A stretch of DNA of 56,589 nucleotides, taken from sequence record PZ445422.1; one strand, written 5' to 3'. Of this stretch, positions 1-56,589 are shown piece after piece. The notes under the pieces were generated by a model, which had not been told where the DNA came from, searched no databases, and was given only the letters and a program-made list of their open reading frames with translations. The number at the start of each line of letters is the position of its first letter. Within the stretch, counting starts at the first letter, position 1. A program made the position numbers and the translations under genes. The stretch is from a phage.

Positions 1-273
1 GTCTTGCCACTCCCCACGAAGTGCAGCAGCAATAAGATCATCGAAGGTGTCGAAGGACATTTCGCCCGTTACTGTACCTTCAACACTGCGAGCACCGAGG
101 CGGAAGTCCGCAGTTTCCGCATCATCGCGCAGTTCTTCAGATTCCAGCGTTGCAATATTAATGTCCAGACCGGAACTGGTTACACGGAACGGAGTAAACT
201 TCGCGCTCGCTGGCGTAGTGTTGCTTACATCTTCTTTGACGTAGTAACACGAATAACGTGAACCTGTAGCCAT
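1..273 (-). CDS. major tail (tube) protein, N-terminal part; ORF runs off the window start
   Basis: ATG at 273 preceded by GAGAGG RBS; open to position 1 (MATGSRYSCYYVKEDV...); follows head-tail genes; in frame with the ORF entering from the window end (55939..56589). Confidence 0.45.
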   Translation of the reverse strand, partial: MATGSRYSCYYVKEDVSNTTPASAKFTPFRVTSSGLDINIATLESEELRDDAETADFRLGARSVEGTVTGEMSFDTFDDLIAAALRGEWQD

Positions 274-8456: not shown

Positions 8457-8991
8457 CTTCAGTCTCTTTAACTAGTCGTTGTTGAGACTCGGATGCAGTT
8501 TTTTCCCATTCGTCAATATTTGCTACAGCAGGGACTATCATTACGCCGCCTCTGTTAGTAACATCAATCTTAGCCTTCTTGGGAGCATCCAAATCATAAA
8601 TTTGTGCAAGCTTGCCCAATGCGGCGACTCTAGCAGCTTGAGAAGATCCCGGTCCTGTATAATGAGCTTCACGTTTTAATGCTTCAATGATATGCTGACG
8701 CTCAAGGTCTGCTTCAATGTTAGCTTGCTCAGAAGTACGTTGAACACGGGATCTTTCAATCTCCTTGAGCTTCCATCGAACATAACAGTCCGTGGCAAAG
8801 CGTTGGCCAAGCTCCTGTGCAAACATAGCATTGAACCCGCATCTCATGCAAGCGTTAGTCCAATTGTAGTCGAACATGTACTCAGCAACAACTTTGTCAC
8901 GTATTGCCATCTCTTCAGCGGACAAGCTATTTGCATACTGGATGTAATTCGTCCAGTCACGATCATATTGCTCTTGACTTGCCCCGTTCAT
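8434..8991 (-). CDS. terminase small subunit candidate
   Basis: 185 aa ORF overlapping the start of the large terminase by 23 nt; position-based. Confidence 0.5.
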   Translation of the reverse strand: MNGASQEQYDRDWTNYIQYANSLSAEEMAIRDKVVAEYMFDYNWTNACMRCGFNAMFAQELGQRFATDCYVRWKLKEIERSRVQRTSEQANIEADLERQHIIEALKREAHYTGPGSSQAARVAALGKLAQIYDLDAPKKAKIDVTNRGGVMIVPAVANIDEWEKTASESQQRLVKETEDGAKPTT

Positions 8992-12403: not shown

Positions 12404-12796
12404 TTACTCCGCTAATGTGTAAGGGATACCGGATGCTTTAATCCGTCTGTACATATCCATAGTACCAGCTCCGCCAGGAAACACAATAGCGTGATCTGGT
12501 TTAGGATCAGTATCCAGCATTAATTGGTTGCGGTAAGCGCCTGCTTGTGCATTATAAGCACCCTTGGCGTTATACCGTATCTTGGTATTTGGTAAGGAAA
12601 GATTGTCCCACGGGGCTGGGAACGCTTCTGTCTTAATACCGTTGCGCTCTGCCCAATGTGCGCAAATCCGGTCAACACCGTCAGCGTCACCGTGGCGAAG
12701 TGTGGTTATCCTTCTTTGCATATGCAGCTTATCCAATTGAGCGTAAATATACTCCACATGCTTAAAATCTCGACCTCCGGTGACGACTAATAGCAT
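12404..12796 (-). CDS. SLOG-family (DUF2493/YspA-like) nucleotide-binding protein
   Basis: MLLVVTGGRDF...HGDADGVDRICAHWA...AIVFPGGAGTMDMY matches the Rossmann-like SLOG pattern (GGR, GxDxxA, GGxGT). Confidence 0.5.
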   Translation of the reverse strand: MLLVVTGGRDFKHVEYIYAQLDKLHMQRRITTLRHGDADGVDRICAHWAERNGIKTEAFPAPWDNLSLPNTKIRYNAKGAYNAQAGAYRNQLMLDTDPKPDHAIVFPGGAGTMDMYRRIKASGIPYTLAE

Positions 12797-16991: not shown

Positions 16992-17020
16992 GTTTTCTTA
17001 TACACTGCTCATCATTACGG

Positions 17021-17043
17021 TGGGCAGTAATAAGCAAACTAAC
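17021..17043 (+). promoter_or_regulatory. conserved upstream motif TGGGCAGTAATAAGCAAACT (copy 2), promoter candidate
   Basis: matches motif at 16701..16725; upstream of ATG at 17065. Confidence 0.3.
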
Positions 17044-17064
17044 ATTAACGAAAGGAGCTATACC

Positions 17065-17679
17065 ATGTCTAAAGTAACTCACCGCGAACAGGACAAAATG
17101 CGTTACACCATGAAAACGAATGCACGCCGCGCCCTGAAAACTCGCTGGGGCCAGGTTGCACGCGACGCACACGAACAGTTAATCCATCAGGACGACATCG
17201 GTTTTTACATCGTCGAGAAGGAAGTCCTTCAGGTGCTGCGCGATCACGAAAAAGCTCAGAAGCCGGAGCAGAAAGTCCCAGCACCGACCGCCGCGCCAGC
17301 CGCCAGCGTCTCGGTACTGCGCCCGATGGTAAATCCGGAAATCGTCAAAAGCTGCCTCGAAGCTTTGGAGCAGGAGGAAGAGAAAGATATGAAACACGCA
17401 AAAGCTGCCACGCAGGTTTCTGAAATCAAAATTGAAGAGCCAAAAGCTGCCGCGCCAAAACAGGATGCAAAAGCTGCTCGCTGTGATTTCAAAAATGGCG
17501 CTCGCAAGCCGCTGAAAGGAAAAACCGCCGAAGTGTGGGCAATGGGCGACAAACTTTTATCCGAACTGGGTCGCACTCCGGAGCTGAAAGAAATGAAAGC
17601 TGCAATGCCTTCTTACAACGGGACAACAGTCGCCATTCAGTTCTACGCATGGCGCAAATACAACGGACTGGACGCATAA
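17065..17679 (+). CDS. hypothetical early protein
   Basis: ATG at 17065 with AAAGGAG RBS (internal start of track ORF 17020..17679); 204 aa, charged. Confidence 0.5.
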   Translation: MSKVTHREQDKMRYTMKTNARRALKTRWGQVARDAHEQLIHQDDIGFYIVEKEVLQVLRDHEKAQKPEQKVPAPTAAPAASVSVLRPMVNPEIVKSCLEALEQEEEKDMKHAKAATQVSEIKIEEPKAAAPKQDAKAARCDFKNGARKPLKGKTAEVWAMGDKLLSELGRTPELKEMKAAMPSYNGTTVAIQFYAWRKYNGLDA

Positions 17680-32967: not shown

Positions 32968-33094
32968 TAAGTTCTAAGCTTGATCAAAAATATTTTTAAA
33001 AATATTCAGATAAGGGGTTGCGTGTCACAAAATCCTTTGGTACATTTAACCCCGTTGGTAACAAACGAACCCATAACAATTCGGAGTGAAGAGA

Positions 33095-33898
33095 ATGAGC
33101 AACATTGAAGATAAAAAAGCCGCTGCCGCTGCTGCCGCTGCTGCCGCTGCAAAATCTGCTAAACCTGCAAAGAAAGAAGCTACTGTGAATGATGCAGAAG
33201 CTAAGAAAGCCGCTGCCGCTGAAGCTGCACGCGTAGCAAAAGAGAAAAAAGAAGCAGAGAAAAAAGCTGCCGCTGAAAAGAAACAAGCTGAAATCCGCAC
33301 TGAAGCGGAAAACAAATTTAATGCGATTGCTAACGCTGCTGAAATCCTGAAAAACTCTTTGGCTACCGTCACCGACGAAAGCACTGTTGAACAAATCACG
33401 GAAGCAGAAACTCAGGGATCTGCAAACCTGAAGACCATTAAAGAAGCTCTGAAAGAGCTGAAAGCTGTCGTTAAGAAGTCTAAAGGTGAAGACCTGTCCG
33501 GTGCTGTAACTTCTGCCCAGGGTCTGGTGGATGGTCTGGAAGCTACTATTAAAGGCTTCAAAGACAAGATCCGTGCTGCAAAACAGGCAGAAAAAGAAGC
33601 GGAAAAAGCACGCGCTAAAGAGCTCCGCGAGAAAGAAAAAGAAGCTAATCGTATGCCGGAACAGAACGGTGTTCGTCGCCCACAACCGGAAACTTCCTGC
33701 GGTCGTGCCTGGGCCCTGATGGACCAGATTAGCGCTACGCTGGGTCAGCCTGCTCCGATCTCTTATGTTCTGAACCTGGCTGGTCGCCATGGTCTGAACG
33801 AAGATACCGTTAAAACCCAATATGCACGCTGGAAGAAATTTAATGGTGTAACTGGTCGCGTACCTGTGCCAGTACCGGAAGCTTTGAACGGCTTGTAA
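33095..33898 (+). CDS. Ala/Lys-rich histone H1-like protein with distinct C-terminal domain
   Basis: ATG at 33095 with GGAGTGAAGAGA RBS; N-terminal two-thirds is KAAAAAAAAAAAK / AEKKAAAEKK low complexity; C-terminal 80 aa globular. Confidence 0.5.
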   Translation: MSNIEDKKAAAAAAAAAAAKSAKPAKKEATVNDAEAKKAAAAEAARVAKEKKEAEKKAAAEKKQAEIRTEAENKFNAIANAAEILKNSLATVTDESTVEQITEAETQGSANLKTIKEALKELKAVVKKSKGEDLSGAVTSAQGLVDGLEATIKGFKDKIRAAKQAEKEAEKARAKELREKEKEANRMPEQNGVRRPQPETSCGRAWALMDQISATLGQPAPISYVLNLAGRHGLNEDTVKTQYARWKKFNGVTGRVPVPVPEALNGL

Positions 33899-33967: not shown

Positions 33968-34675
33968 ATGAATATTAATCAACAAGCTCCCGAGTCTCGT
34001 TCTAAAGAAAACGATATGTATTTAGACGTGCATTCGGTATTCTCTACCATTCAGGGTGAAGGTCCATTCTGCGGTCAACCTGCGGTATTTGTGCGCCTTG
34101 CTGGATGTAACCTGCAATGCCCGGGCTGCGACACGGATTATACTGTTGGTCGTTCTCTTTACCACATTGTTGATATCATGCGTTTAATCGAAAGCCGTAA
34201 GCTGGAATCAGGCAATAGCACCTCACTTGTGGTTATTAGTGGGGGTGAACCGTTCCGTCAGCAAATTAACCCGTTTATTGAACAACTGTTATCGCGCGGG
34301 TATCTTGTACAGATTGAAACGAATGGGTCTATGCCTTTACCTAAGAACTTTTCCCAGCTACCTGTCATTGTATGCAGTCCTAAGACTTCAAAGATTCATC
34401 CTTCTGTGCTGTACCGCGCTAATGCATTTAAATATGTACTTAAAGCGTGCTGTGTAAACGTGGAAGATGGTTTGCCTCTTCAAGCATTAGATCATCAAGC
34501 TACGCCATTTATCGCTAGACCTCCGAAGGGGTTCAAGGGTAAGATATATTTACAGCCAATGGACGAGCAGGATGAAGATCTTAACCACAGTAACATCAAA
34601 GCGGTTGTCCAAAGCTGTATGAAACACGGGTACACGTTGCAGCTTCAGGTTCACAAATATATCGGGGTGGAATAA
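33968..34675 (+). CDS. queE: 7-carboxy-7-deazaguanine synthase (radical SAM)
   Basis: FSTIQGEGPFCGQPAVFVRLAGCNLQCPGCDTDYT matches the QueE N-terminal Cx14CxxC radical-SAM signature; AGAGGA RBS. Confidence 0.85.
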   Translation: MNINQQAPESRSKENDMYLDVHSVFSTIQGEGPFCGQPAVFVRLAGCNLQCPGCDTDYTVGRSLYHIVDIMRLIESRKLESGNSTSLVVISGGEPFRQQINPFIEQLLSRGYLVQIETNGSMPLPKNFSQLPVIVCSPKTSKIHPSVLYRANAFKYVLKACCVNVEDGLPLQALDHQATPFIARPPKGFKGKIYLQPMDEQDEDLNHSNIKAVVQSCMKHGYTLQLQVHKYIGVE

Positions 34676-34887
34676 TGATCACTTTAGAAGAAGCGAAACA
34701 GCATCAGGAAATGATCACTGAGCTGGTAGAAAAACTTAATTCTGCAATTGCTCACGCTACCATGCAGGGAGTGCATGTAGAATTGGATATTAATCACGTT
34801 AGTACAATCGGGGCACGCAATCATCCAATTGTGATGTCAAATGTAACAATCAATCCTTGTAATATTAAAGGTGTAGAAGATGAATGA
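34675..34887 (+). CDS. hypothetical small protein, paralog of next ORF
   Basis: 70 aa; LNSAIAHATMQGVHVELDI parallels LNDAICRAASKNIHSELEI in the adjacent ORF. Confidence 0.45.
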   Translation: MITLEEAKQHQEMITELVEKLNSAIAHATMQGVHVELDINHVSTIGARNHPIVMSNVTINPCNIKGVEDE

Positions 34888-35068
34888 AGAGACTGTGGTT
34901 CTTATGCAGAAGATGCAACGTTTACAAGACGAGCTGAATGACGCTATCTGTCGTGCTGCATCCAAGAACATACATTCGGAGCTTGAAATTCATAAGCGTC
35001 AGATGACATCTGATGATGTAGTTGAACAAGTGGTCGTTAATCTTAATATTAGCCTTAAAGGGTTCTAA
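34880..35068 (+). CDS. hypothetical small protein, paralog of previous ORF
   Basis: 62 aa; overlaps previous ORF by 8 nt; shared sequence pattern. Confidence 0.45.
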   Translation: MNEETVVLMQKMQRLQDELNDAICRAASKNIHSELEIHKRQMTSDDVVEQVVVNLNISLKGF

Positions 35069-35069
35069 G

Positions 35070-35777
35070 ATGAATAAATTAGATAAACTGGTATTCCCTG
35101 TAAAAAATCATAACTCCGCCGTTGTCGTCCTGTCTGGCGGCCAGGACAGCGTGACCTGTTTAGGTCTTGCACTTAATAACTATGATAAGGTTTACGCTAT
35201 TGGTTTTGCATACGGTCAACGTCATAACATTGAGCTGGCTTGTGCTAATCAAATTTGTAAAGAGCACGATGTCCAATTTGTTGTCTTTGAATTACCTGCT
35301 TTGAAACAGATTGGCAATAGCGCTTTAATCGGGAACGAAGGTGATGTTAACGAACATCACGAACAGCACAACAACCTTCCGGCTAGCTTTGTGCCAAACC
35401 GTAATGCTCTTTTTCTGACTACCGCGCACGCCTACGCGCAGAAAGTTGGCGCCCGATATGTGGTTACGGGCGTTTGCGAAACGGACTATAGCGGTTATCC
35501 GGATTGCCGTCAGCAGTTTGTAGATTTGCTTGAAGCTACGTTAAACGTTGGATATGAAACAGATATTCATTTCGTTACCCCGCTTATGCGTTTAAATAAA
35601 GCAGAAACGTTTGAGCTGGCGGATAAGGTTGGTTTCTTAACCACAGTAATTGAACAATCCCATACTTGCTATAACGGCGTCCGTCGCACTCTGCATGACT
35701 GGGGATATGGTTGCGGTGAATGTCCTGCGTGCAAACTGCGTGCTAAGGGGTACAGCGAATTTATTAGCAAAGCTTGA
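35070..35777 (+). CDS. queC: 7-cyano-7-deazaguanine (preQ0) synthase
   Basis: AVVVLSGGQDSVTCL PP-loop motif and YAIGFAYGQRHNIEL block typical of QueC; ATG at 35070 immediately after previous stop. Confidence 0.85.
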   Translation: MNKLDKLVFPVKNHNSAVVVLSGGQDSVTCLGLALNNYDKVYAIGFAYGQRHNIELACANQICKEHDVQFVVFELPALKQIGNSALIGNEGDVNEHHEQHNNLPASFVPNRNALFLTTAHAYAQKVGARYVVTGVCETDYSGYPDCRQQFVDLLEATLNVGYETDIHFVTPLMRLNKAETFELADKVGFLTTVIEQSHTCYNGVRRTLHDWGYGCGECPACKLRAKGYSEFISKA

Positions 35778-35897
35778 TCTTACCGCGAAAACCGCACCGC
35801 TAGCGCATTGTTTAGGGTGCGGGAACCCAACTATACTACTAAAGCTTTTAAACCCAACAACCAGCGAATAACGCTGTTAAAACTGGAGAACAAAAGT

Positions 35898-36377
35898 ATG
35901 AAATTTATCGTTGCTTATCTGGCTGCAATTACATTCGTAAACCTGGGCTTTTCCTACCTTCCAATACTTAACACGCCGCTTGGCGTAGTCCCGATGATGG
36001 CTTTCTTTGTAGGTATTATCTTTGTGTTGCGCGACTACGCACAGCGTAACGCTGGCAAAGGCGTCATCCCTGCAATGATTATCGGTTGTATTCTTAGCTG
36101 GGTATTCGGGGATCCTGCGGTTGTAGTTGCATCAGTTGCATCCTTTGCACTTAGCGAGTTTGCGGACTATGCGGTATACACGATTACTAAGAAGCCTTTC
36201 CATCAACGAGTATTTATCAGCTCTTTGGTAGCTGTACCGATTGACTCCATTGTGTTCTTAAGTATTATAGGTATTGTTAATCCGGGATCAATGGTAGCAA
36301 TGAGCTTAAGTAAGTTCACAGCATCCGCTATCCTTTGGATTGTTTACGAAGTTCAATCACGTACAGCGAGAGCGTAA
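35898..36377 (+). CDS. integral membrane protein, possible queuosine-precursor transporter (YhhQ/DUF165-like)
   Basis: ATG at 35898 with GGAG RBS; about 5 TM segments; assignment rests mainly on location inside the deazaguanine cluster. Confidence 0.35.
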   Translation: MKFIVAYLAAITFVNLGFSYLPILNTPLGVVPMMAFFVGIIFVLRDYAQRNAGKGVIPAMIIGCILSWVFGDPAVVVASVASFALSEFADYAVYTITKKPFHQRVFISSLVAVPIDSIVFLSIIGIVNPGSMVAMSLSKFTASAILWIVYEVQSRTARA

Positions 36378-36378
36378 A

Positions 36379-36969
36379 ATGAAAGATAATCTTAATAAAA
36401 TTTGGCACCAGCACGATGGGAAAGGAATGCCAATCTTTCTTCGCAATGAAAAGTTTGAAGTTCGTTTGCGCAACGGCACACACGTTAAGAATCTATTACA
36501 TGGATGGGATTGGGCTATAGAAGGGCGTTCAGCTATGGATGAAAATAGCCCTTATAAAGTTCAAGATATTATAGCCTGGCGATATATCGTTGCGGATGAT
36601 TACGTCAAACAAGCCAGCGAAAACACTCGCTCCGGAGTGTACCATCAACCTTCTTCTGGAATAAGCATAAGTAATACATTTAATGGTGCAGTTTTTACCA
36701 AATATGAACCATCTAAAATTCCCATGAATAAATATCAGAAAATTATTTATGGTAAAGATCAAAACGGCAATGTTGTAAAATGCATCGTGGACGTGTATGA
36801 TGTCTTGGAAGCTTGGAAAACAACTAACCCAGCTTTACAACATTTGATTAAAAAGGCGTTGCAGCCGGGCGAACGTGGTCATAAAAGTCTGGTAGAAGAT
36901 TTGAAAGACATTATTGCATCCGCACAGCGTGCATTAGAAATTGAACAGTCTAAAGAGGTATTAAAATGA
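36379..36969 (+). CDS. hypothetical protein embedded in deazaguanine cluster
   Basis: 196 aa; ATG at 36379 right after previous stop; stop overlaps queD start; no recognisable motif. Confidence 0.5.
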   Translation: MKDNLNKIWHQHDGKGMPIFLRNEKFEVRLRNGTHVKNLLHGWDWAIEGRSAMDENSPYKVQDIIAWRYIVADDYVKQASENTRSGVYHQPSSGISISNTFNGAVFTKYEPSKIPMNKYQKIIYGKDQNGNVVKCIVDVYDVLEAWKTTNPALQHLIKKALQPGERGHKSLVEDLKDIIASAQRALEIEQSKEVLK

Positions 36970-37502
36970 GCTATACAGTAATTCGTTCACATGAAATTTG
37001 CGCCGGACATCGTGTTGTAGGTCACGAAAGCAAATGTCGCCACCTCCACGGTCACAACTATAAGTTTCACTTTAAGGTTGCTCCGAAGCATGGATGCGGA
37101 AAAGTAGTGACACGAGGAAAGCTGATTGAGGACGGTCTGGACAGCGTTGGGCGCGTGATTGACTTTAGTGTGGTTAAAGCTACGCTCTGCCAGTGGCTAG
37201 AAGATAACTGGGATCATAAGTTTCTACATTGGGAAAAGGATATGTTGATCAACGGACTGCAATGTTGTATTGAAACGGATACTCAATCTGAACGCGGTTG
37301 GCCTACTTTCGGTGAAGGGGATGAAGATCTTAAAGCTTTTAACGATTCACTGGTATCTTTGCCGTTCAACCCAACTGCGGAAAACCTAGCTGCATATATG
37401 GTTGAAGTAATTGGTCCGCAACTGCTTGACGAACATAGTGTTCAACTTGTAGAATGCACCATCGAAGAAACTTCGAAATGCCACGTAAACTATAGCCTGT
37501 AA
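36966..37502 (+). CDS. queD: 6-carboxy-5,6,7,8-tetrahydropterin synthase
   Basis: ICAGHRVVGHESKCRHLHGHNY carries the QueD/PTPS Cys and His-x-His zinc motif. Confidence 0.8.
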   Translation: MSYTVIRSHEICAGHRVVGHESKCRHLHGHNYKFHFKVAPKHGCGKVVTRGKLIEDGLDSVGRVIDFSVVKATLCQWLEDNWDHKFLHWEKDMLINGLQCCIETDTQSERGWPTFGEGDEDLKAFNDSLVSLPFNPTAENLAAYMVEVIGPQLLDEHSVQLVECTIEETSKCHVNYSL

Positions 37503-37503
37503 T

Positions 37504-38127
37504 ATGACCACATTAACAAGGAAACTGCAAACCATGTCTAAATATAGTATTAATAGTGAAGGTGTTCAATTCCGTATTGCTAACGCTGTGCGTACTTTAC
37601 TATCCCAAATTGAAGTTAGCGCGGTTCTGCGCCCAGGGCTGGAGGAAACTCCGGAGCGTGTAGCGAAAGCTTATGCAACGTGGTTTAGCGGTTACGATGT
37701 AGATATCGCTGGATTGTTTAAAACCTTTGAAGATGGTGCGGAAGGTACGGATGAAATGGTCATTGTCCGTGATATTCCTGTATACAGTCATTGTGAGCAT
37801 CACATGGCCCCTATCATCGGGCGTGCTGTTGTGGGTTATGTCCCCAATGGGAAGATCGTTGGGCTTAGTAAGCTGTCTCGCGTTGTGGATGCTTTTAGTC
37901 GTCGACTGCAAGTTCAGGAACGTCTTACTAACCAGATTGCAGATGCTATCCAGGAGCATTTAGACCCGAAAGCTGTGTGCGTTTACATCGATGCTAAGCA
38001 TATGTGCATGGAATCGCGCGGGGTTAAGCAGGTATGCGGAAGCTCTACCATTACTAAAGCTTTCCGCGGTGCTGCATCGTTTAAAGGTGATGCTTGGCGC
38101 CGGGAGTTCCTTGAAGCTTGTAAATAA
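37504..38127 (+). CDS. folE: GTP cyclohydrolase I (alternative start at 37534)
   Basis: CEHHMAPIIGRAVVGYVPNGKIVGLSKLSRVVDAFSRRLQVQERLT matches the FolE active-site region nearly residue for residue. Confidence 0.9.
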   Translation: MTTLTRKLQTMSKYSINSEGVQFRIANAVRTLLSQIEVSAVLRPGLEETPERVAKAYATWFSGYDVDIAGLFKTFEDGAEGTDEMVIVRDIPVYSHCEHHMAPIIGRAVVGYVPNGKIVGLSKLSRVVDAFSRRLQVQERLTNQIADAIQEHLDPKAVCVYIDAKHMCMESRGVKQVCGSSTITKAFRGAASFKGDAWRREFLEACK

Positions 38128-38146
38128 TAGATAGCTTTACAGATCA

Positions 38147-38182
38147 AGCCCATATCGGTCATAATACTGGTATGGGCTTTTT
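38147..38182 (+). terminator. possible terminator or attenuator hairpin
   Basis: agcccata ... tatgggct stem with large loop followed by TTTTT. Confidence 0.3.
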
Positions 38183-38198
38183 AGTCATTGGAGGAAAT

Positions 38199-38405
38199 AT
38201 GTCAAGACAACTAATCTTAGAGACAGCATTCTACCAGCTTAAAGCAGGTACTGCGGATGCTTGCTCTGCAATACAGAATGATGCGCCTACAGATGTTTTA
38301 AAGCAGCAGCTTATTGACGCTAAACATCGAGCGGACGAAGCATTTAATGAAGCGTGGCGTACTTTAGAATTAATTGATCAGTTTGGAGGACCATTCCAAA
38401 AATGA
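38199..38405 (+). CDS. hypothetical small protein
   Basis: ATG at 38199 with GGAGGAAAT RBS; 68 aa. Confidence 0.45.
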   Translation: MSRQLILETAFYQLKAGTADACSAIQNDAPTDVLKQQLIDAKHRADEAFNEAWRTLELIDQFGGPFQK

Positions 38406-39322
38406 ACGTATTTATGGCAGCAGTTTACACAAACGGATATATGCCTGGACAGCAGCGTTATGAGAAGCTGTCTGAGCATGAGAAAAATATCACGCGCAAT
38501 CTGCCCCATATTTTGGAATCATATCACTACGTTGGGCGTCAGAAGTATGTTGATCAAATGCGTGCGGACGGGGCTAAAGTGTTTCTCGACTCCGGTGCAT
38601 TCTCTGCGCACTCTTTAGGTGCTCACATTGATATTGTCGAATATTGCGAATACATCAAACGCAATAAAGATATCCTGCGGGTAGAAGATGGTGCGGTAAT
38701 GGCGTCGGTACTTGATGGTATCGGTGATCCGTTACAAACCTACCGTAACCAGCTTGAAATGGAAGCACGCGGTGCTAAACCGTTACCGTGCTTTCACTTT
38801 GGTGAGGACTTCCGCTATCTTGAATATTACATGAAGAACTACGAATATATCACCATCGGGGGCATGGTAGGGCGTTCGACAGACACGCTTAAAACATGGC
38901 TTGACCGTATGTGGGACAAATACATTTGCGATGGTAGCGGTTGCCCTAAGATTAAGCTTCATGCATTTGGTATTACGTCCACTACCATCATGGAACGTTA
39001 TCCGTGGTATAGCTGTGACTCGTCCTCCTGGATTCAAGCGGCAGCGTTTGGAAGTGTGGTTACTCCTCCGTGGGGACCAATGCGCGTATCAGATAAGTCA
39101 CCGGACCGCCATCATTTTGGTAAGCATGTTTCAACATTAACTGAAATTGAACAAGACGCTGTCCTTAAATACCTTGAGCAAAACGGTTTCACTTACGAAC
39201 GTTTATCAACAATCTATGAATCACGTGCCGCCTTCAACTTATGGGCGTATGGTGTAATTGCTGCAAACATTAACGCTACCCATGACGGCACATTCCGTGA
39301 TCGTGTAATGGAGTTGTTCTGA
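38402..39322 (+). CDS. dpdA: 7-deazaguanine DNA transglycosylase (TGT-like)
   Basis: 306 aa; VFLDSGAFSAHSLG resembles the TGT catalytic-Asp block (DSGGFQ); co-located with folE-queD-queC-queE; start overlaps upstream stop. Confidence 0.65.
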   Translation: MNVFMAAVYTNGYMPGQQRYEKLSEHEKNITRNLPHILESYHYVGRQKYVDQMRADGAKVFLDSGAFSAHSLGAHIDIVEYCEYIKRNKDILRVEDGAVMASVLDGIGDPLQTYRNQLEMEARGAKPLPCFHFGEDFRYLEYYMKNYEYITIGGMVGRSTDTLKTWLDRMWDKYICDGSGCPKIKLHAFGITSTTIMERYPWYSCDSSSWIQAAAFGSVVTPPWGPMRVSDKSPDRHHFGKHVSTLTEIEQDAVLKYLEQNGFTYERLSTIYESRAAFNLWAYGVIAANINATHDGTFRDRVMELF

Positions 39323-45375: not shown

Positions 45376-45744
45376 TTACATATCTTTCATTTTTTGAAGA
45401 GCGCAAGTACAAGCTGCGGCAAGATCAGTCAACTCTTTCATGATCCCTGCGCGGTCACCTTCTTTCTTACACTCCATTAATTCGCGGTATTCCATTTCAA
45501 CAATGGACATCATACCGCCGGGCTTGTCGTGGTACGCCGCCCACGTATGCGGAGGTTCTTCCATCCGGTCAAGAACATTTGACATAGCTGCCATATGTTC
45601 ATGATCTCGAGCATAAGAGTGAGCATGTTTATATTCCTCTTTCTCATGTTCATGGTTGTGCTCACCTACGCTAATGCGAGGTAAAGCAACCTTAGGCAAT
45701 TTAACCCGTGGCATTCCCATCGTTGCGATTTTAATGTGGCTCAT
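45376..45744 (-). CDS. His-rich hypothetical protein (weak MazG-like helical pattern)
   Basis: EHNHEHEKEEYKHAHSYARDHEH His-rich stretch; EMEYRELMECKKEGD...KELTDL loosely resembles MazG EExxE/D; AGAGGT RBS. Confidence 0.35.
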   Translation of the reverse strand: MSHIKIATMGMPRVKLPKVALPRISVGEHNHEHEKEEYKHAHSYARDHEHMAAMSNVLDRMEEPPHTWAAYHDKPGGMMSIVEMEYRELMECKKEGDRAGIMKELTDLAAACTCALQKMKDM

Positions 45745-55938: not shown

Positions 55939-56589
55939 TTATTCTGTCGCTAAAACGCGGGTAATTTTGATGGAACTTGCGGTTGTTGGGTCCAGCAATC
56001 CGCGGTAGCCCATATTAAGCATGATATCACCTTCACCGTCAATAGGACGCGGAGCTTCAGTGAATTTCACGCGAGGGATTTCCACTGTGTATTTCTGTTC
56101 CGGATTGGTCGGGTCAATCAGATCAAACTTGATTGAAGTTTCCACTTCATTCAGATACTTCATACGCAGCTTGTTATCCAGGAAGTACACGTTAGCTGTA
56201 CCAGTTACCGCACGACGACCAGCGGACGGTTCAATGGAGAACTTAGAACCAACAACAAAGCGCGGCGCAATATCGTTTTCAACGGTAAGACCGATTTCCG
56301 TAATAACGCTGATTTCTTCGTTGTTTTCCAGCAAGCGACCGGAGAAACCATCCATCGGTGAAGTAGTCGTACGGTCTTTGATAGTTGCACCAGATGGGAG
56401 CGATTCCGCAATTTCCATCGAGCGACCAACAATACCGAATTCCACTGTGGTCATGTTTTCCGCAGACAATGAGAAAGTCATGCTATTAACTTCGCAACCG
56501 CGATAAATTGTATATTTACCTGACGGCAGATCTGCGTTATAGTCTACGAAAGTAAATGACTGACGGACAATACCGCCTTTAAGGACGTT
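55939..56589 (-). CDS. major tail (tube) protein, C-terminal part; ORF enters from beyond the window end
   Basis: reading frame open from 56589 (no stop upstream of the annotated Met at 56481); in phase with the ORF fragment 1..273. Confidence 0.5.
   Translation of the reverse strand, partial: NVLKGGIVRQSFTFVDYNADLPSGKYTIYRGCEVNSMTFSLSAENMTTVEFGIVGRSMEIAESLPSGATIKDRTTTSPMDGFSGRLLENNEEISVITEIGLTVENDIAPRFVVGSKFSIEPSAGRRAVTGTANVYFLDNKLRMKYLNEVETSIKFDLIDPTNPEQKYTVEIPRVKFTEAPRPIDGEGDIMLNMGYRGLLDPTTASSIKITRVLATE

Follow-up and report, generated by a model that had tools for sequence, protein, structure and literature searches.

The region at 33968–39322 very probably represents the 7-deazaguanine DNA-modification operon of a Seuratvirus phage, with dPreQ0 as its product and no further tailoring of the base. 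The window, meaning the whole stretch of 56,589 nucleotides, is the full genome sequence of the Seuratvirus Escherichia phage GottfriedDienst (Bas21); it matched MZ501071.1 with 100% identity but is rotated and reverse-complemented relative to that record. The GenBank annotation of MZ501071.1 already includes QueE, "dPreQ0 synthase QueC", YhhQ, QueD, FolE, and DpdA. Seuratvirus phages replace about a quarter of their DNA guanines with 7-cyano-7-deazaguanine, and the gene set has been published. The feature is an ordinary and explained one, as the phage, its gene cluster, and the predicted base have been published and annotated before, and the value of this analysis is mostly confirmatory: the gene-content rule by which QueC leads to dPreQ0 and Gat-QueC leads to dG+ is established.

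Gene content of the operon

The region contained, in order, QueE, two small ORFs, QueC, a YhhQ-like protein, a 196-aa ORF, QueD, FolE, a 77-aa ORF, and DpdA. The coordinates given in the preliminary description were all correct. The features are as follows:

33968–34675, + strand: QueE, 7-carboxy-7-deazaguanine synthase, radical SAM (PHROG 2076 QueE-like, 5e-68; Pfam Radical_SAM/Fer4_12)
34675–34887, + strand: 70-aa ORF, Seuratvirus-specific (PHROG 26258; no Pfam or NCBIfam match; 97% identical to CAjan gp44)
34880–35068, + strand: 62-aa ORF, Seuratvirus-specific (PHROG 24420; no Pfam or NCBIfam match; 87% identical to CAjan gp43)
35070–35777, + strand: QueC, single-domain preQ0 synthase, 235 aa, without a Gat domain (Pfam QueC, 6e-75; TIGR00364)
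35898–36377, + strand: YhhQ-like short membrane protein, 159 aa, putative preQ0 transporter (Pfam Vut_1, 4e-5; TIGR00697, 2e-4)
36379–36969, + strand: 196-aa ORF (GenBank CDS bas21_0043), no recognisable enzyme (small N-terminal beta domain and conserved C-terminal domain)
36966–37502, + strand: QueD, 6-carboxytetrahydropterin synthase (Pfam PTPS, 2e-22; PHROG QueD-like, 3e-52)
37504–38127, + strand: FolE, GTP cyclohydrolase I (Pfam GTP_cyclohydroI, 3e-64; TIGR00063)
38172–38405, + strand: 77-aa ORF (PHROG 20065; no Pfam or NCBIfam match; 93% identical to CAjan gp36)
38402–39322, + strand: DpdA, DNA guanine transglycosylase exchanging G for preQ0 (PHROG 887, 3e-95; CAjan identity)

All five genes of the phage dPreQ0 pathway (FolE-QueD-QueE-QueC-DpdA) were present. 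The Pfam QueC match extended over nearly the entire 235-aa protein with no additional domain, and QueC scored above the NCBIfam equivalog cutoff of TIGR00364 (243 bits vs. 150), in agreement with its earlier description as a single-domain enzyme of about 235 aa. FolE also exceeded its cutoff (TIGR00063, 202 bits vs. 181.6). QueE retained CxxxCxxC in a CNLQCPGC motif at residue 47, and its top NCBIfam matches were QueE equivalogs, every one of them under cutoff; DpdA reached only 16 bits with the equivalog model for bacterial DpdA (cutoff 200). Because QueE and DpdA fell below the curated NCBIfam cutoffs, these two assignments rest on PHROG matches and the identity with the CAjan proteins. The CxxxHGH motif of QueD was intact (C24). 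Both matches of the YhhQ-like protein were under cutoff. The 70-aa ORF was a weak paralogue of the 62-aa ORF (E 7e-5), and the 77-aa ORF and dpdA shared 4 nt at the stop of the former and the start of the latter. The operon was contiguous with the genes for the sliding clamp and DNA polymerase, and start and stop codons overlapped or abutted. A promoter and terminator scan gave counts not above those of shuffled controls.

The closest known system is that of CAjan (Seuratvirus; Hutinet 2019, PMC6884629; Kot 2020, PMC7544227), which matches Bas21 in the order and set of genes from queE through dpdA and has an orthologue of every small ORF. DpdA, QueE, QueC, and YhhQ were 96–99% identical between the two phages (DpdA 99.3%; QueE 98.7% to gp45; QueC 97% to gp42; YhhQ-like protein 96% to gp41), whereas QueD (77%, gp38), FolE (86%), and the 196-aa ORF (55%, gp40) were more divergent; only CAjan has a further gene of 107 aa, gp39, which separates gp40 from queD. 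Deletion of yhhQ in CAjan left the modification unchanged (PMC7544227).

Enterobacteria phage 9g (Nonagvirus, dG+) has the same operon frame, consisting of queE, a variable slot, queD, folE, dpdA, clamp, and polymerase. The QueE, QueD, FolE, and DpdA proteins of 9g were 63–80% identical to those of Bas21 (QueD 72%, gp05; DpdA 68%). Phage 9g makes dG+ and encodes a 471-aa Gat-QueC fusion, the QueC part of which was only 28% identical to Bas21 QueC, whereas the Bas21 window showed no trace of Gat; Vibrio phage AQKL99 has a single-domain QueC close to that of Bas21 (3e-83). Unlike Bas21, 9g lacks YhhQ and the 70-, 62-, and 77-aa ORFs, the last having no annotated counterpart in 9g. Across Queuovirinae, the queE-queD interval is an exchangeable slot holding the QueC type and tailoring gene of each lineage: 9g and PAJD-1 have Gat-QueC there, and MMDA13 has a QueF-like gene. 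The 196-aa ORF of Bas21 and gp07 of 9g, which has the C-terminal domain of that ORF, both lie within this slot. The bacterial Dpd system (DpdA/DpdB/DpdC, dPreQ0 and dADG) likewise uses a TGT-like transglycosylase to put preQ0 into DNA (PMC10516641); DpdB and DpdC were absent from the Bas21 cluster.

Tailoring genes and the predicted base

The window lacked tailoring genes, in line with the earlier claim that no amidotransferase, ArcS, or QueF-like gene is present. Pfam was scanned at E<=0.01 with nearly all non-overlapping ORFs that were at least 40 aa long (the ORFs of at least 90 aa omitted were shadow ORFs or a minor-tail gene), and NCBIfam was scanned with the cluster. No GATase, ArcS/DUF5591, QueF, methyltransferase, or formyltransferase family was detected in the window by Pfam, and neither Pfam (window ORFs) nor NCBIfam (cluster) revealed DpdL, DpdM (DUF3109-type), or DpdN (formyltransferase). 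An HMM search for amidotransferase and QueF/T-fold domains had been suggested as a check; the sole QueF-type signal was a sub-threshold T-fold cross-match within FolE (Pfam QueF, 25.4 bits vs. cutoff 27.3; NCBIfam QueF-II, 30 bits vs. 86.9). Six-frame tblastn and phmmer searches with 9g Gat-QueC, PAJD-1 Gat-QueC, and MMDA13 QueF-like protein found the QueC domain only, all other matches having E>=0.03 (best for the MMDA13 query, E=0.039). The same searches with the two phage Gat-QueC proteins were empty for the pair of small ORFs that precedes queC, and a Gat-domain remnant there was rejected. The gene content also did not fit the dDG route (DpdL), in which a QueD paralogue lacks its catalytic Cys and the genome has no QueC: a single PTPS-family gene was present, its CxxxHGH was intact, and QueC was encoded.

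dPreQ0 is expected in Bas21 virion DNA because no enzyme for its further conversion is present. The preliminary description had named dPreQ0 as the simplest product, and published work on related phages supports this. [quoted passage not shown] In LC-MS/MS assays targeted to dADG, dQ, dPreQ0, dPreQ1, and dG+, which a minor unfamiliar derivative would escape, CAjan DNA contained 70,628 dPreQ0 per 10^6 nt, with dADG, dG+, dPreQ1, and dQ each <6 (PMC6884629). The modification motifs of CAjan are GA and GGC (PMC7544227); these motifs comprised 28.3% of Gs in the Bas21 genome, or 63 per 10^3 nt, compared with 44–71 per 10^3 nt measured in CAjan. Inactivation of CAjan dpdA left no 7-deazaguanine in the DNA and conferred restriction sensitivity (PMC6884629). 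Bas21 itself is targeted by a defence nuclease acting on phages with modified G (bioRxiv 10.1101/2025.03.31.646159). No published mass spectrometry or direct nucleoside analysis of Bas21 DNA was found in the literature, and the pathway chemistry and the dPreQ0 product are inferred for Bas21 from experiments on the near-identical CAjan cluster. By this analogy, FolE, QueD, QueE, and single-domain QueC would convert GTP to free preQ0 (7-cyano-7-deazaguanine), and DpdA would swap guanine for preQ0 in phage DNA after replication, presumably at GA and GGC motifs and so at about 28% of the Gs. The chemistry would stop at preQ0, and the resulting virion DNA with dPreQ0 would be expected to blunt restriction enzymes.

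A base other than preQ0 is most unlikely. Such a base could be dADG, if QueC were a QueC*-type ADG synthase, or dPreQ1, if a host QueF reduced preQ0 and DpdA inserted preQ1. E. coli K-12 encodes QueF, which counts in favor of the dPreQ1 route. For certain phage QueC homologues, ADG has been proposed as the end product, and preQ1 is a substrate of some DpdA enzymes (PMC10516641). Against both routes, Bas21 QueC and DpdA are nearly identical to those of CAjan, whose DNA held dADG and dPreQ1 only below the level given above with E. coli K-12 MG1655 as the host, and QueC passed the preQ0-synthase equivalog model. There is a negligible chance that the main role of the cluster lies in queuosine metabolism of host tRNA or in the supply of preQ0, and not in DNA modification. 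This idea draws on the homology of the genes to those of the queuosine pathway and on the many records that label DpdA "queuine tRNA-ribosyltransferase"; the CAjan dpdA mutant, restriction-sensitive and devoid of any DNA modification, the contiguity of the operon with clamp and polymerase genes, and the sensing of Bas21 as a modified-G phage all argue against it.

The 196-aa ORF

The dPreQ0 operon carries one larger ORF with no recognisable enzyme, which had been proposed as the first place to look for a noncanonical tailoring activity. In this 196-aa ORF, residues 74–112 formed a low-confidence, probably flexible linker, and the conserved C-terminal domain (about residues 113–196) comprised a beta-hairpin and helices with the invariant polar residues D138, Y140, D141, H155, K158, K159, R166, H168, and K169. 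Searches of Pfam, NCBIfam, PDB sequences, and PDB folds gave no match, including none to an amidotransferase, T-fold, reductase, or methylase by family, PDB sequence, or fold. The C-terminal domain was found in 718 phage records, 367 of them from Salmonella phages and the majority without DpdA, whereas DpdA was found in 237, three from Salmonella phages. The DpdA neighbourhoods of PAJD-1, MMDA13, AQKL99, and VPv64 lacked the domain; these four lie outside Seuratvirus and Nonagvirus, and three of them are Queuovirinae or Queuovirinae-like. A tie between this domain and deazaguanine clusters was rejected on these record counts and absences; its contexts in Casjensviridae, Macdonaldcampvirus, and Yokohamavirus phages also contradicted the association.

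The proposal was not supported, and a tailoring role for the 196-aa ORF is very unlikely. The orthologue of this ORF is CAjan gp40, so this protein family coexists with pure dPreQ0 DNA; the two proteins, which are variable in the middle part, may differ in behaviour as they are only 55% identical. The broader possibility that this ORF or the 70-, 62-, or 77-aa ORF tailors preQ0 or dPreQ0, perhaps to a derivative outside the targeted assays, carries a very slight probability. It gains from the location of the 196-aa ORF in the slot that holds the tailoring function in 9g, PAJD-1, and MMDA13, from the occupation of that slot by gp07 with the same domain in 9g, and from the many invariant polar residues. 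In CAjan, however, gp40 and counterparts of the three small ORFs are all present, but the DNA showed no monitored derivative besides dPreQ0, at a level about as predicted from the GA/GGC motifs; the lack of enzyme-like family, PDB, or fold matches and the occurrence of the domain mostly in phages without deazaguanine genes, and not near the four DpdA genes named above, also weigh against it. The 196-aa ORF can drop in priority as a tailoring candidate. It and the three small ORFs are probably accessory genes in or beside the variable slot of the dPreQ0 operon, outside the base chemistry; the small ORFs appear confined to Seuratvirus, and the C-terminal domain of the 196-aa ORF seems wider among enterobacterial phages.

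The 196-aa ORF was also compared with T7 gp1.7/DUF3310 (PF11753). Both proteins are about 196 aa long; in each, the N-terminal part is variable and the C-terminal domain spans about 65–80 aa, with an order of motifs that looked similar by eye. Foldseek against BFVD gave weak matches, with poor TM-scores, to proteins labelled "SaV-like" (9e-4) and "nucleotide kinase" (1.4e-2). PF11753 recognised T7 gp1.7 (4.5e-23) but none of the 66 members of the 196-aa ORF family; cross HMM searches between this family and DUF3310 were negative, and hhalign against 150 diverse DUF3310 representatives was non-significant (P=0.025, probability 1.9%). An assignment as a DUF3310/T7 gp1.7 nucleotide kinase was not supported. 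One PHROG, phrog_25460, was weakly matched by both T7 gp1.7 and 9g gp07. There is a slim chance that the C-terminal module of the 196-aa ORF and 9g gp07 is a functional accessory of enterobacterial Queuovirinae deazaguanine operons, possibly a strongly diverged nucleotide- or base-binding domain akin to gp1.7/DUF3310, and not an unrelated moron; if so, the module might tune the supply of precursors, the targeting of DpdA, or a minor derivative outside the monitored set.

The gene cluster at 33968-39322

Along its whole length, the region 33968-39322 matched with 100% identity MZ501071.1, the record of Escherichia phage GottfriedDienst (Bas21 of the BASEL collection; Queuovirinae, Seuratvirus). 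This record has 56,589 bp, equal to the window, and the window is its reverse complement after circular rotation, with record position 1 at window position 8991. The small terminase gene starts at position 1 of MZ501071.1 (window 8991/8992), and the tail-tube gene is split by the window ends (55939-56589 plus 1-273, minus strand). In about 33 further records, nearly all of Seuratvirus, 80% or more of the region was covered at a DNA identity of 84-97%. All genes of the cluster lie on the plus strand, with starts and stops that overlap or abut, and the cluster runs straight on into the genes for the sliding clamp and DNA polymerase.

Genes of the cluster (window coordinates)
33968-34675, +, QueE; PHROG QueE-like, 5e-68; CNLQCPGC motif
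34675-34887, +, 70-aa ORF, no family
34880-35068, +, 62-aa ORF, no family
35070-35777, +, QueC, 235 aa; Pfam QueC, 6e-75; TIGR00364, 243 bits (cutoff 150)
35898-36377, +, YhhQ-like, 159 aa; Vut_1 and TIGR00697, both sub-threshold
36379-36969, +, 196-aa ORF, no family
36966-37502, +, QueD; Pfam PTPS, 2e-22; CxxxHGH at C24
37504-38127, +, FolE; Pfam, 3e-64; TIGR00063, 202 bits (cutoff 181.6)
38172-38405, +, 77-aa ORF, no family
38402-39322, +, DpdA; PHROG 887, 3e-95

The annotation of MZ501071.1 names QueE, 'dPreQ0 synthase QueC', 'preQ0 transporter YhhQ', QueD, FolE and '7-deazaguanosine inserting enzyme DpdA'. The tandem 70-aa and 62-aa ORFs overlap by 8 nt and are weak paralogues (E 7e-5); their counterparts in the Seuratvirus CAjan share 97% and 87% identity, respectively. 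The PHROG/RefSeq label of the 70-aa ORF, 'radical SAM domain-containing protein', was without Pfam or NCBIfam support and looks like annotation carry-over from the adjoining queE. At stop and start, the 77-aa ORF and dpdA overlap by 4 nt, suggesting translational coupling; this ORF is kept in CAjan at 93% identity, and the Nonagvirus 9g has no annotated counterpart.

Tailoring enzymes and the predicted base

Tailoring enzymes, which convert preQ0 or dPreQ0 further, were sought by a Pfam scan (E<=0.01) of concatenated, almost all non-overlapping ORFs of at least 40 aa in the window, together with the ten cluster proteins; the ORFs of at least 90 aa outside the scan consisted of a minor tail gene and of shadow ORFs nested in longer ones. 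The matches in the window (terminase, portal-associated DUF4055, tape measure, tail tip J, dUTPase, RNase H, ligase, AAA_24, DUF669, SF2 helicase, PDDEXK nuclease and a SLOG domain) represented structural, lysis and replication families. In this ORF set, no glutamine amidotransferase, ArcS/DUF5591, PUA, QueF, DUF3109 (DpdM), formyltransferase (DpdN) or DNA methyltransferase rose above the threshold. The sole QueF-type signal in the Pfam and NCBIfam scans was sub-threshold and lay inside FolE (25.4 bits against 27.3 for Pfam QueF; 30 against 86.9 for NCBIfam QueF-II), a cross-match to be expected because FolE and QueF are both T-fold proteins.

Six-frame tblastn and phmmer searches of the window with the Gat-QueC proteins of 9g and PAJD-1 and the QueF-like protein of MMDA13 matched only the QueC domain; all other matches had E>=0.03. 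A Gat-domain remnant was also looked for with the two Gat-QueC queries, and none was found in the window. The catalytic CxxxHGH was intact in QueD, which is therefore not a DpdL-type decarboxylase paralogue by the criterion of PMC10516641. The absence of an amidotransferase, ArcS or QueF-like gene, as stated in the preliminary description, was confirmed by Pfam and six-frame searches of the window and, for the cluster proteins, by NCBIfam.

[quoted passage not shown] The Seuratvirus studied by experiment is CAjan (PMC6884629, PMC7544227), whose proteins share 99.3% (DpdA), 98.7% (QueE), 97.0% (QueC), 96.2% (YhhQ), 86.5% (FolE) and 76.7% (QueD) identity with those of Bas21, and all small ORFs of the Bas21 cluster have CAjan orthologues. 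CAjan DNA, from phage grown on E. coli K-12 MG1655, contained 70,628 dPreQ0 per 10^6 nt, and a dpdA mutant had no such bases (PMC6884629). In a second study dPreQ0 was the sole 7-deazaguanine, located in the motifs GA and GGC; its level was 12-fold lower in a queC deletion mutant and unaffected by yhhQ deletion (PMC7544227). Applied to the Bas21 genome, these motifs predict modification of 28.3% of Gs, or 63 per 10^3 nt, inside the range measured in CAjan (44-71 per 10^3 nt). A defence nuclease that senses modified-G phages targets Bas21 (bioRxiv 10.1101/2025.03.31.646159).

Two other products, which the preliminary description does not mention, were weighed. QueC could halt at the amide, giving dADG, or the host QueF could reduce the base to dPreQ1; both are very unlikely in view of the CAjan data, in which dADG, dG+, dPreQ1 and dQ were each <6 per 10^6 nt (PMC6884629). 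Because a literature search found no nucleoside analysis of Bas21 DNA itself, we infer its product from near-identity to CAjan, which argues strongly that it would be dPreQ0. The earlier prediction of dPreQ0 from gene content is supported by the published QueC rule, the Seuratvirus assignment and the CAjan measurements. Neither the absence of tailoring genes nor this interpretation is new: both have been published, and annotated, for this phage and its genus.

The queE-queD interval across Queuovirinae

The order queE, slot, queD, folE, dpdA, clamp, polymerase is kept across Queuovirinae, and the queE-queD interval is a swap slot with variable content.

Content of the slot
Bas21, window 34675-36969, +, two small ORFs, QueC, YhhQ, 196-aa ORF
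9g, locus L004 5207-7385, gp07, Gat-QueC
PAJD-1, locus L010 5212-6612, Gat-QueC
MMDA13, locus L011 5155-6625, QueC, 137-aa ORF, QueF-like gene
AQKL99, locus L012 5902-6651, QueC only

The QueC part of 9g Gat-QueC shares only 28% identity with Bas21 QueC, whereas the flanking genes share 63-80%, and the single-domain QueC of AQKL99 is very close to that of Bas21 (3e-83). On these sequence comparisons, Seuratvirus differs from Nonagvirus by replacement of a cassette rather than by loss of the Gat domain.

The 196-aa ORF and other ORFs

The 196-aa ORF had been proposed as the first place to look for a noncanonical tailoring activity. Its positional orthologue in CAjan, gp40, shares 55% identity; the N-terminal ~35 and C-terminal ~75 residues are conserved around a variable middle. 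Pure dPreQ0 DNA thus occurs in a phage that has a protein of this family. No Pfam or NCBIfam family was matched by the ORF and 65 homologues, and no PDB sequence was found with the family profile, leaving the ORF without a recognisable family or fold. We consider it very unlikely that it hides a tailoring activity.

The C-terminal ~80 residues form a strongly conserved domain, in which D138, Y140, D141, H155, K158, K159, R166, H168 and K169 are invariant and which is joined to a variety of N-terminal parts. In the 196-aa ORF the domain lies at window 36715-36969 (compare 9g locus L004 6624-7385), with the motif VDVYDVL..AW..NPALQHLIKKALQPGERGHK..DL.DI.ASA.RA.EL. It is a very widespread phage module, absent from Pfam. 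Among phage records, 718 contain the domain (367 of Salmonella and 192 of Escherichia phages) and 237 a DpdA homologue (3 and 41, respectively). The same domain is carried by 9g gp07, which also sits between queE and queC. An HMM of the domain had no match in the ±8 kb around DpdA of Pseudomonas phage PAJD-1, Sphingomonas phage MMDA13, Vibrio phage AQKL99 or Variovorax phage VPv64. Where phages of Casjensviridae, Macdonaldcampvirus and Yokohamavirus carry the domain, deazaguanine genes were absent from its surroundings. We conclude that it is a module common among enterobacterial phages and no conserved part of the modification pathway.

The motif order of this domain resembles DUF3310 (PF11753), the C-terminal domain of T7 gp1.7 nucleotide kinase (4.5e-23). 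Foldseek against BFVD gave weak matches to 'SaV-like' (9e-4) and 'nucleotide kinase' (1.4e-2) proteins, and phrog_25460 was weakly matched by both T7 gp1.7 and 9g gp07. Membership in DUF3310 was not accepted, given hhalign probabilities <=2% against T7 gp1.7, its close family and 150 diverse DUF3310 representatives, and negative cross HMM searches.

Upstream of queE, a 270-aa ORF (33086-33898) has a poly-Ala, Lys/Glu-rich N-terminal half. The C-terminal ~65 aa of its CAjan orthologue, gp46, also match the C-terminus of a 219-aa ORF at 17020-17679 (E 5e-4), as does 9g gp09 (E 0.008), suggesting that the 270-aa and 219-aa ORFs share a paralogous C-terminal domain. The 122-aa ORF at 45376-45744 (minus strand), a 'putative pyrophosphatase' in GenBank, drew no Pfam match (E<=0.01) when the concatenated ORFs were scanned. 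The 130-aa ORF at 12404-12796 (minus strand) carries a YAcAr/YspA-related SLOG domain (Pfam PF10686, 1.2e-17).
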